DNA of 54,189 nt from Escherichia coli (GTDB taxonomy: Bacteria; Pseudomonadota; Gammaproteobacteria; Enterobacterales; Enterobacteriaceae), in assembly GCF_003334335.1 (NCBI RefSeq), contig NZ_QOWQ01000032.1, one strand, 5' to 3'. The notes under the pieces were generated by a model. That model had not been told where the DNA came from. It ran no database searches and saw nothing but the letters and a program-made list of their open reading frames with translations. A program made the position numbers and the translations under genes. Positions 34,123 to 45,978 of the stretch are shown piece by piece. Within the stretch, counting starts at the first letter, position 1; each line of letters opens with the position of its first letter.

Positions 34123-35763
34123 TCACACCGTAGCGAAACTAACTGGTTCACCCGCTCCGCGAGGTTCTGCCGACACAGAATGTTTGTGCAGACGGAATAC
34201 ATCCACCGCCTCAGTTAATCGTGCCGCCTGTTCTTCAAGGGACACCGCCGCCGCTGAGGCCTCTTCTACCAGAGAAGCATTCTGTTGCGTCACCTTATCC
34301 ATTTCAGAAATCGCCTGGCTAACCTGCGTTATGCCTCTACTTTGTTCATCCGAGGCGGCGGCGATTTCCTGCATGATATGTGTGACACTCGCGACGGCAT
34401 CAACAATAGTGCTCATGGTTTTCCCGGCCGTTGCCACCTCATCCGACCCCAGGTCAATTAACCTGACTGATTCACTGATCAAGCCTTCAATCTCTTTCGC
34501 CGCCTGAGCGCTGCGACTTGCGAGTGTCCGTACTTCGCTGGCGACAACGGCAAATCCACGCCCTTGCTCACCCGCTCGCGCGGCTTCAACGGCAGCATTC
34601 AGTGCCAGAATATTCGTCTGGAAAGCAATACTGTTGATGACGGCGGTGATCTCAGAAATTTTCTTCGAACTCGTGGAGATAGCGCCCATCGTTTTTACTA
34701 CACCGGAAACCGTCTGCCCGCCATCGCTGGCTTTAATAGAAGCCTCTTGCGCCAGTTTGCTGGCATGATGCGCGTTATCCGCATTCTGTTTCACCGTCGC
34801 AGTGAGTTGCTCCATGCTGGCGGCAGTTTGTTCGATAGCCGCCGCTTGTTCTTCGGTGCGAGATGACAGGTCCGCATTGCCAGCTGAAATTTCGCTGGTG
34901 CCACGATAAATCTCTTCCGCGCCCTGTCGAACAGTCCCTACTGTCATCCCCAGTGAATGCTGCATTTGCTGTAAATGACGACTTAAGCGACCGATTTCAT
35001 TACGACCCGCCGGTTCATCATTCATCGTCAGATCGCCACTGGCGATTTTTTCAATCCGTTGTGCGGCATGTTGCAGTGGACGAATGACGATCCGACGTAG
35101 CACCATAAATGTTATCAGCGTCATGACCAGGGCAAGCACAAACGCGCCAATCATGAACATCCCACCCAGGCGGGTGCGCTGATGGGCCAGTTCCGCCAGT
35201 TGGTTGGCTCTGGTGCTACGTATCTTAACGGCTTTGTTCAAAATATCGGTATAAGCATTATCCAGCGGTCGGATCTGCTCACTTTCATGATTGATAATCG
35301 CTTCAAACATGCCATTTTTGGCATATTTCAACATAGGTTGCATACCCGTGATATAAGCCTGAAAGCGTTGATTTAATTCAGTGTCGAGGGCTTCATCAGC
35401 AGGTGTTTTCACCGGTCGATTCTGATAAGCACGATAACCTTGCTGCGACTGTTTAATCTCCGATTCGGCTTGCGCAATATTTCGCTTCATTGCTTCCATT
35501 TCCGCAATACGACTCGCAGCCCCGGCCTGAATCATATTGATCCGGGCTGAACGCAAAAAATCTGAACTGTTCGCTAACCCGGTCCGAATCTCAATCTCCG
35601 CAGTAACATCACGCTGATCGCGATCGGCCTGCCAGAGGAAATAGCCAGCCAGGGCTGAACTTAATGCGAATAGAACTAAGATACCGCCTAGAATGCAGGC
35701 AAATAACGGAACCAACCTGATGTGATGCAAAAAACCTAATCGCTGTGAGGGAGTTGTATTCAT
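34123..35763 (-). CDS. trg: methyl-accepting chemotaxis protein III (ribose/galactose)
   Basis: 546-aa ORF with two TM segments, HAMP domain and highly conserved MCP signalling domain (methylation sites EEQAAA, QQNA). Confidence 0.9.
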
Positions 35764-35802
35764 TACCGTTGTCTCTCGTCCAGGTTTACTCCTGATAGAA
35801 AG

Positions 35803-35829
35803 TCATCGGCACTTGACGGTAATTACTTA
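35803..35829 (-). promoter_or_regulatory. sigma28 (FliA) class-3 flagellar promoter for trg
   Basis: Minus strand reads TAAGTAAT-N11-GCCGATGA against consensus TAAAGTTT-N11-GCCGATAA, about 40 nt upstream of the trg ATG. Confidence 0.5.
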
Positions 35830-36039
35830 TGACCAAAAACCTCTTTGCGTCACATTTTTACAACAATTATTGCATAGAAAATTAATGCTATTGGAATGAA
35901 GAGAGTAACGAATGGCTAAACTGGCTAACCCGAATGACGAAAAATTCTGGAAAACAGCACGCAATTTCGTGAAGTGATTATTTTCGTCCCTAAGGAAACC
36001 TTATAGGATGCCTGCGGGTGCCTGAGACTTTCTGTTTTC

Positions 36040-36103
36040 AGGCTAACCGGGAATCAGAAAGACGAAGGCCCCGACCGATATTTCTATCAACCGAGGCCAA
36101 CGA

Positions 36104-36130
<27 letters not shown>
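36040..36130 (-). ncRNA. sokB: expected SokB antisense RNA overlapping the mokB/hokB leader (boundaries approximate)
   Basis: Inferred from hok/sok family architecture. Not independently delimited from sequence. Confidence 0.3.
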
Positions 36131-36311
<181 letters not shown>

Positions 36312-36317
36312 GGGCAA

Positions 36318-36342
36318 GCGCGGGGATTTTCCCCGCGCATTT
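36318..36342 (+). terminator. intrinsic terminator after hokB
   Basis: gcgcgggg-atttt-ccccgcgc followed by attt. Confidence 0.5.
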
Positions 36343-36382
36343 GACTAGCAGATTCATTTTCTCATGGCACCCCTTTTACACT

Positions 36383-36556
36383 TCAGTTAGTGCATGTTTT
36401 TTTCGATGCACTAATAGAACCATCATTACAGACAAATTTGCCGCCTGCCGTACAGTGTGAGATCCCCCCTTTCGAACCAGAACAGGGTTTGCGCCCGGCA
36501 TCGGCATAAAAGGAAACAAGCGTTCCCATAAACAAAATAAGTGCCAGTTTTTTCAT
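36383..36556 (-). CDS. ydcA: small secreted Cys-rich protein (57 aa)
   Basis: Manual translation of minus strand: MKKLALILFMGTLVSFYADAGRKPCSGSKGGISHCTAGGKFVCNDGSISASKKTCTN. Below the ORF-track cutoff. Confidence 0.75.
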   Translation of the reverse strand: MKKLALILFMGTLVSFYADAGRKPCSGSKGGISHCTAGGKFVCNDGSISASKKTCTN

Positions 36557-36726
36557 ATAACCTCCATGGTTTATCGAATCTTATGTTCGATTTGAACGTT
36601 ATACGCTGGTTTATTTTGATACCGTTGATGAGATCAAAGATCGGGTGAATTGATTAAAAATAAGCCAGATGGACGTATGGGCAAGGATTATGGTTTTATT
36701 TATCATACAAATAAATATAATAGGCG

Positions 36727-45363: not shown

Positions 45364-45978
<615 letters not shown>

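Follow-up and report, generated by a model that had tools for sequence, protein, structure and literature searches.

The sequence directly upstream of trg in the analysed stretch of DNA (54,189 nucleotides of an Escherichia coli genome, contig NZ_QOWQ01000032.1; hereafter the window) is almost certainly the single functional promoter of this gene in E. coli, read by FliA (sigma28) and assisted by CRP. The membership of trg in the FliA regulon, with co-activation by CRP, is already published, and the promoter has been characterised in K-12 (trgp; Hollands 2010, PMC2859248; Fitzgerald 2014, PMC4183435; also Park 2001, as cited in Fitzgerald 2014); the finding is correct and ordinary. The window is identical to K-12 over the promoter, the CRP site and the leader. 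The elements and their conservation were read from the sequences, and the published experiments on the identical K-12 sequence show that FliA occupies the site, that trg depends on fliA, that CRP binds and activates, and where transcription starts. Judging from this identity, these experiments probably carry over to the window strain, which would then behave like K-12.

Locus and promoter elements

Matches to the 1-kb region of the locus occur in 5417 of 5426 complete E. coli genomes (annotated trg / hokB / yncP / ydcA), and the window shares with K-12 the gene order ydcI-trg-sokB-mokB/hokB-yncP-ydcA-cybB. Window positions (w) were converted to K-12 coordinates as NC_000913.2 = 1490494 + (35763 - w) and NC_000913.3 = 1492470 + (35763 - w). 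An alignment with K-12 MG1655 over 371 bases upstream of trg (window 36120-35750) shows a single difference, which lies outside the promoter. This difference, the sole one between trg and hokB, is a C-to-T substitution 200 bp upstream (window ~36002, plus strand CCTTATAGGATG) and corresponds to position -14 of the hokB promoter, the published hokB start being window 36016. The features are the following:

34123..35763, minus strand: trg, E. coli chemoreceptor gene, 546 codons (open reading frame list and translation; the trg annotation is that of K-12 and other E. coli)
35764..35796, minus strand: trg 5' leader, 33 nt from the mapped start to the base before the ATG, with a conserved GAGAG ribosome-binding stretch
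35803..35810, minus strand: sigma28 -10 element GCCGATGA, at -14 to -7 from the mapped start (sequence, ChIP-seq motif, conservation)
35811..35821, minus strand: spacer TACCGTCAAGT, whose 11-nt length fits the sigma28 consensus spacing
35822..35829, minus strand: sigma28 -35 element TAAGTAAT (sequence; the conserved part is the TAA and the A-rich tail only)
35836..35857, minus strand: CRP binding site AAATGTGACGCAAAGAGGTTTT (aer-like spacing; gel shift and lacZ data of Hollands 2010, PMC2859248; TGTGA conservation)
36114..36058, trg strand: sokB, upstream of trg, with a terminator-like hairpin at 36098..36067

The first-pass annotation had reported a sigma28 motif on the trg strand between 35764 and 35900, and it is present there when the minus strand is read: the order before trg is ...GGTCA TAAGTAAT TACCGTCAAGT GCCGATGA CTTTCTATCAGGAGTAAACCTGGACGAGAGACAACGGTA ATG, with the -35 octamer at 35829..35822, the spacer at 35821..35811 and the -10 octamer at 35810..35803. 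The motif had also been said to match the FliA consensus closely. Scored against TAAAGTTT-N11-GCCGATAA, this description suits the -10 octamer (7/8) but not the -35 octamer, which is poor (4/8); the overall match is a modest 11/16, which counts against the reading as a FliA/CRP promoter, and a consensus search of the window allowing up to 3 mismatches missed the trg site and returned two unrelated hits, a number not above the chance level. Several of the sites bound by FliA in ChIP-seq have a -35 element as weak as that of trg (Fitzgerald 2014, PMC4183435). Shifting the -35 octamer by 1 nt (ATAAGTAA, spacer of 12) gave no better match, and the orthologues hold the TAA-N16-GCCGAT register.

The canonical class-3 promoters (tar, tsr, fliC, motA) share with trg the two-block motif, the 11-nt spacer, a -10 element of the GCCGATAA type and a strong fliA dependence. 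They differ from it in having a near-consensus -35 element (TAAAGTTT, TAAACTTT), in their ChIP scores (57-110 versus 23 for trg) and in lacking direct activation by CRP.

Chance expectation and conservation of the motif

We built FliA weight matrices from the ChIP-seq sites of Fitzgerald 2014 (PMC4183435, Table 2), with trg excluded. With the matrix of the 51 other sites trg scored 14.7 bits (training median 16.7) and chance alone should give 0.58 equal or better sites in 54 kb, both strands counted; with the matrix of the 24 strong sites it scored 15.9 bits (training median 20.6), with 0.29 such sites expected. The match is moderate by sequence alone and at the scale of the window it lies within chance. 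Because 0.3-0.6 equally good sites are expected per 54 kb, the sequence alone is weak evidence. By arithmetic from the same rates, the chance that a site on the right strand within ~130 nt before the trg start reaches this score is ~3.5e-4 to 7e-4.

The trg site ranks second in the window by the FliA matrix. A site inside azoR (CAAATTTCACATCGGTAATGCCGATAAA, 45886..45859, minus strand) scores as well or better (14.6 bits by the matrix of all 51 sites, 16.9 by that of the strong sites), is the same in K-12 (NC_000913.3:1482347, antisense inside azoR) and is absent from the 52 published FliA ChIP-seq peaks (Fitzgerald 2014, PMC4183435). An unbound site of this score counts against reading the trg site as a FliA/CRP promoter, and the example means that sigma28 calls of this kind need support from position, conservation or experiment. 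For trg the case is settled by these three.

To follow the motif across species, a scan was made with the N-terminal 300 residues of Trg, each species being represented by one genome; it recovered 80 orthologous loci within the Enterobacteriaceae (Escherichia, Citrobacter, Enterobacter, Lelliottia, Leclercia, Kosakonia, Phytobacter, Siccibacter and others). Within the 300 nt upstream of trg the best matrix match averaged 14.2 bits over these loci, as against 2.1 on the opposite strand and 2.4 in coding sequence; it exceeded both controls in 79 of the 80 loci, always lay at the homologous position and had the 11-nt octamer spacing in all 80. When the sequences were anchored on the -10 element, the GCCGAT of that element was invariant (81/81 sequences, ~80 Enterobacteriaceae species) and the TAA of the -35 element was found in 80-81 of 81, while the other -35 positions vary save for the A-rich tail. 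The spacer is free to vary, with a mean of 0.50 bit per column versus 1.83 for the -10 octamer. The pattern recurs within the species: in divergent E. coli alleles (up to ~6% over 137 nt) both octamers and the upstream TGTGA are unchanged and the spacer and flanks vary. In preprints of the Wade laboratory on Salmonella and on evolution, the conservation of flagellar-related FliA promoters is put as a general statement, and their main text gives no trg-specific data.

Several variants of the region were seen. The 137-nt promoter region has no match in 926 of the 5426 complete E. coli genomes; a 2025 paper (PMC12623472) describes a truncated Trg-like protein (Tls) in phylogroup B2, with a deletion here. 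The trg leader of the Enterobacteriaceae outside Escherichia is ~13 nt longer, and past the start site these longer leaders hold a small conserved inverted repeat, GGCGTG-TTTT-CACGC, ahead of the ribosome-binding site (~10-45 nt past the -10 element), a repeat that Escherichia is without. In Enterobacter mori an insertion of ~190 nt lies between the trg ATG and the sigma28 promoter, which is conserved there, and gives a leader of ~240 nt.

Transcription start and FliA dependence

A genome-wide map of transcription starts (Cho 2014, PMC3923258, Tables S4/S6) places a trg start at NC_000913.2:1490461 (+), with 8 reads in stationary phase, and the upstream 51-mer listed for it ends in ...GCCGATGACTTTCTA. 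In the window this corresponds to the A at 35796. It follows the -10 octamer by 7 nt, which fits the ~6-8 nt of sigma28, and precedes the trg ATG (1490494, window 35763) by 33 nt; the comparison with a mapped start that had been proposed as a check was thus borne out, for K-12 and its identical promoter. The other use that the first-pass annotation had seen in the promoter, as a check on the start of trg, is borne out too: read upstream in frame from the ATG, the sequence meets a stop at the TGA within the -10 octamer, no ATG, GTG or TTG lies between that stop and the ATG at 35763, and AGAGAG-N9/10-ATG is kept in the 80 orthologous loci.

Occupancy by FliA was found by ChIP-seq (Fitzgerald 2014, PMC4183435): the trg peak is centred at 1490461 with a FAT score of 23, the centre of the motif lying 18 nt upstream of this point, and the motif given for it (TAAGTAATTACCGTCAAGTGCCGATGAC) is exactly the 28-mer of the window. 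Expression in a fliA mutant, the other check that had been proposed, agrees in three K-12 data sets: trg RNA fell from 108 in motile MG1655 to 4 in the fliA deletion, a change flagged as significant (Fitzgerald 2014, PMC4183435); a trg::lacZ fusion requires sigma28 (Hollands 2010, PMC2859248); and on microarrays trg changed -2.0-fold in the mutant and +2.2-fold upon induction of sigmaF (Zhao 2007, PMC1935009).

That the resemblance arose by chance, with trg transcribed from a sigma70/sigma38 promoter or from a far-upstream start near window 36349 and with an indirect dependence on fliA, seems to us extremely improbable. The expected number of equally good matrix matches in 54 kb is compatible with it, and so are two published observations, each of which also counts against the FliA/CRP promoter, as does the low number of reads (8, in stationary phase) of the mapped start. 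The transcription start map of Kim 2012 did not detect the start at 35796 and gave trg only one start, with 4 reads and 586 nt upstream, and sigma binding at the trg start is listed as D, S, F by Cho 2014 (PMC3923258), i.e. with ChIP-chip signals of sigma70 and sigma38 alongside sigma28. Against a chance match stand the position of the ChIP-seq peak, the mapped start 7 nt past the -10 element and the elements that are invariant across ~80 species around a variable spacer. The 4-read start lies beyond the terminator-like hairpin of sokB (36098-36067), and we judge the tables of Kim 2012 uninformative for trg, a gene with little expression in the cultures used there. The region with the sigma70 and sigma38 signals is only 220-320 bp from the hokB and sokB promoters, the hokB mRNA starting at 36016 on the strand opposite to trg. 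Because a scan for sigma70-like promoters over 35400-36400 found none, there is no support for a housekeeping promoter at trg. An Rfam scan of 35300-36700 recovered only the hok/sok family (36016-36167, plus strand) and no RNA element in the trg leader.

Co-activation by CRP and the comparison with aer

The first-pass annotation had called the motif consistent with class-3 regulation, and the occupancy by FliA and the dependence on it uphold this; the promoter is however not a simple class-3 promoter, as CRP co-activates it from a site that had gone unmentioned. In K-12, CRP shifts a trg fragment in gels and directly activates trg::lacZ, with the same spacing between the CRP site and the promoter elements as at aer (Hollands 2010, PMC2859248). 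The 22-mer of trg matches the CRP consensus at 13/22 positions; its left half, TGTGA, is perfect and its right half, GAGGT, is poor. Its centre lies at -50.5 from the mapped start at 35796, or at -49.5 if the start is placed as at aer.

At aer, a promoter that like that of trg depends on both sigma28 and CRP, the CRP site is centred at -49.5 and primer extension puts the start 6 bp past the -10 octamer (Hollands 2010, PMC2859248), while the trg start, 7 nt past it, comes from a genome-wide map. When the K-12 aer and trg promoters are aligned on their FliA motifs both consist of: the CRP 22-mer, 6 nt, the -35 octamer, 11 nt and the -10 octamer. The aer CRP site is the better one (17/22 versus 13/22 at trg), and the aer -35 element (TAAAGATA) is nearer to the consensus than that of trg, whereas its -10 element (GCCGACAT) is farther from it.

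The TGTGA is found in 81 of 81 orthologues in either of two registers 1 nt apart, most genera having it 1 nt farther upstream than Escherichia, and a TCACA-like right half-site occurs in none of the 81. Between the TGTGA and the -35 element lies a block of the form G-C/G-G-x-TTTT, 12 to 6 nt upstream of the TAA, with little or no variation among the 81 sequences; its TTTT run (in the region of window 35836-35843), which follows the conserved G/C-G and ends up 6-9 nt ahead of the -35 octamer, is itself invariant (81/81). One could speculate that this block is a dedicated docking element for the alpha-CTD or binds a second factor, so far undescribed, and that it defines the -49.5 geometry of CRP and sigma28, a proposal that we consider rather doubtful; alternatively, the block is merely a degenerate CRP half-site. 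In E. coli GPEC1176 the end of a Mu-like prophage lies inside the trg CRP site (positions 1-1520 of that locus), and the insertion deletes the TGTGA and leaves the sigma28 elements and trg intact, which makes it a natural knockout of the CRP site.

A plain class-3 promoter, for which FliA alone would be enough and no activator needed, was implicit in the first-pass annotation and is in our view very unlikely. The sigma28 elements are present and conserved as it would have them, CRP is not bound at most class-3 promoters, and in vitro the sigma28 holoenzyme opens aer without CRP at high polymerase concentration (Hollands 2010, PMC2859248). At trg, however, the lacZ fusion depended on CRP under conditions that separate this from the effect of CRP on FliA levels, the experiment in a crp deletion with plasmid-supplied FliA being among those reported (Hollands 2010, PMC2859248); the weak -35 element and the TGTGA half-site, kept at a fixed distance in all 81 orthologues, also speak against FliA alone.

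For the promoter read by FliA with the assistance of CRP the course is then the following. RNA polymerase with FliA recognises GCCGATGA as -10 and the weak TAAGTAAT as -35 element, 11 nt apart, and transcription begins at the A at window 35796, so that a leader of 33 nt precedes the ATG (35763); this places trg in the late (class 3) tier of the cascade from FlhDC to FliA. Because the -35 element is poor, the promoter would rely also on cAMP-CRP. This factor, bound ~49.5 bp upstream (35857-35836), would recruit the sigma28 holoenzyme in the unusual geometry of aer. The finding confirms the trg start at 35763 and that the window is ordinary E. coli chromosome; apart from the quality of annotation it has little value. 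For the organism, the CRP input would tie the expression of the ribose/galactose receptor to the quality of the carbon source, and trg would thus be under the flagellar cascade as well as catabolite control.
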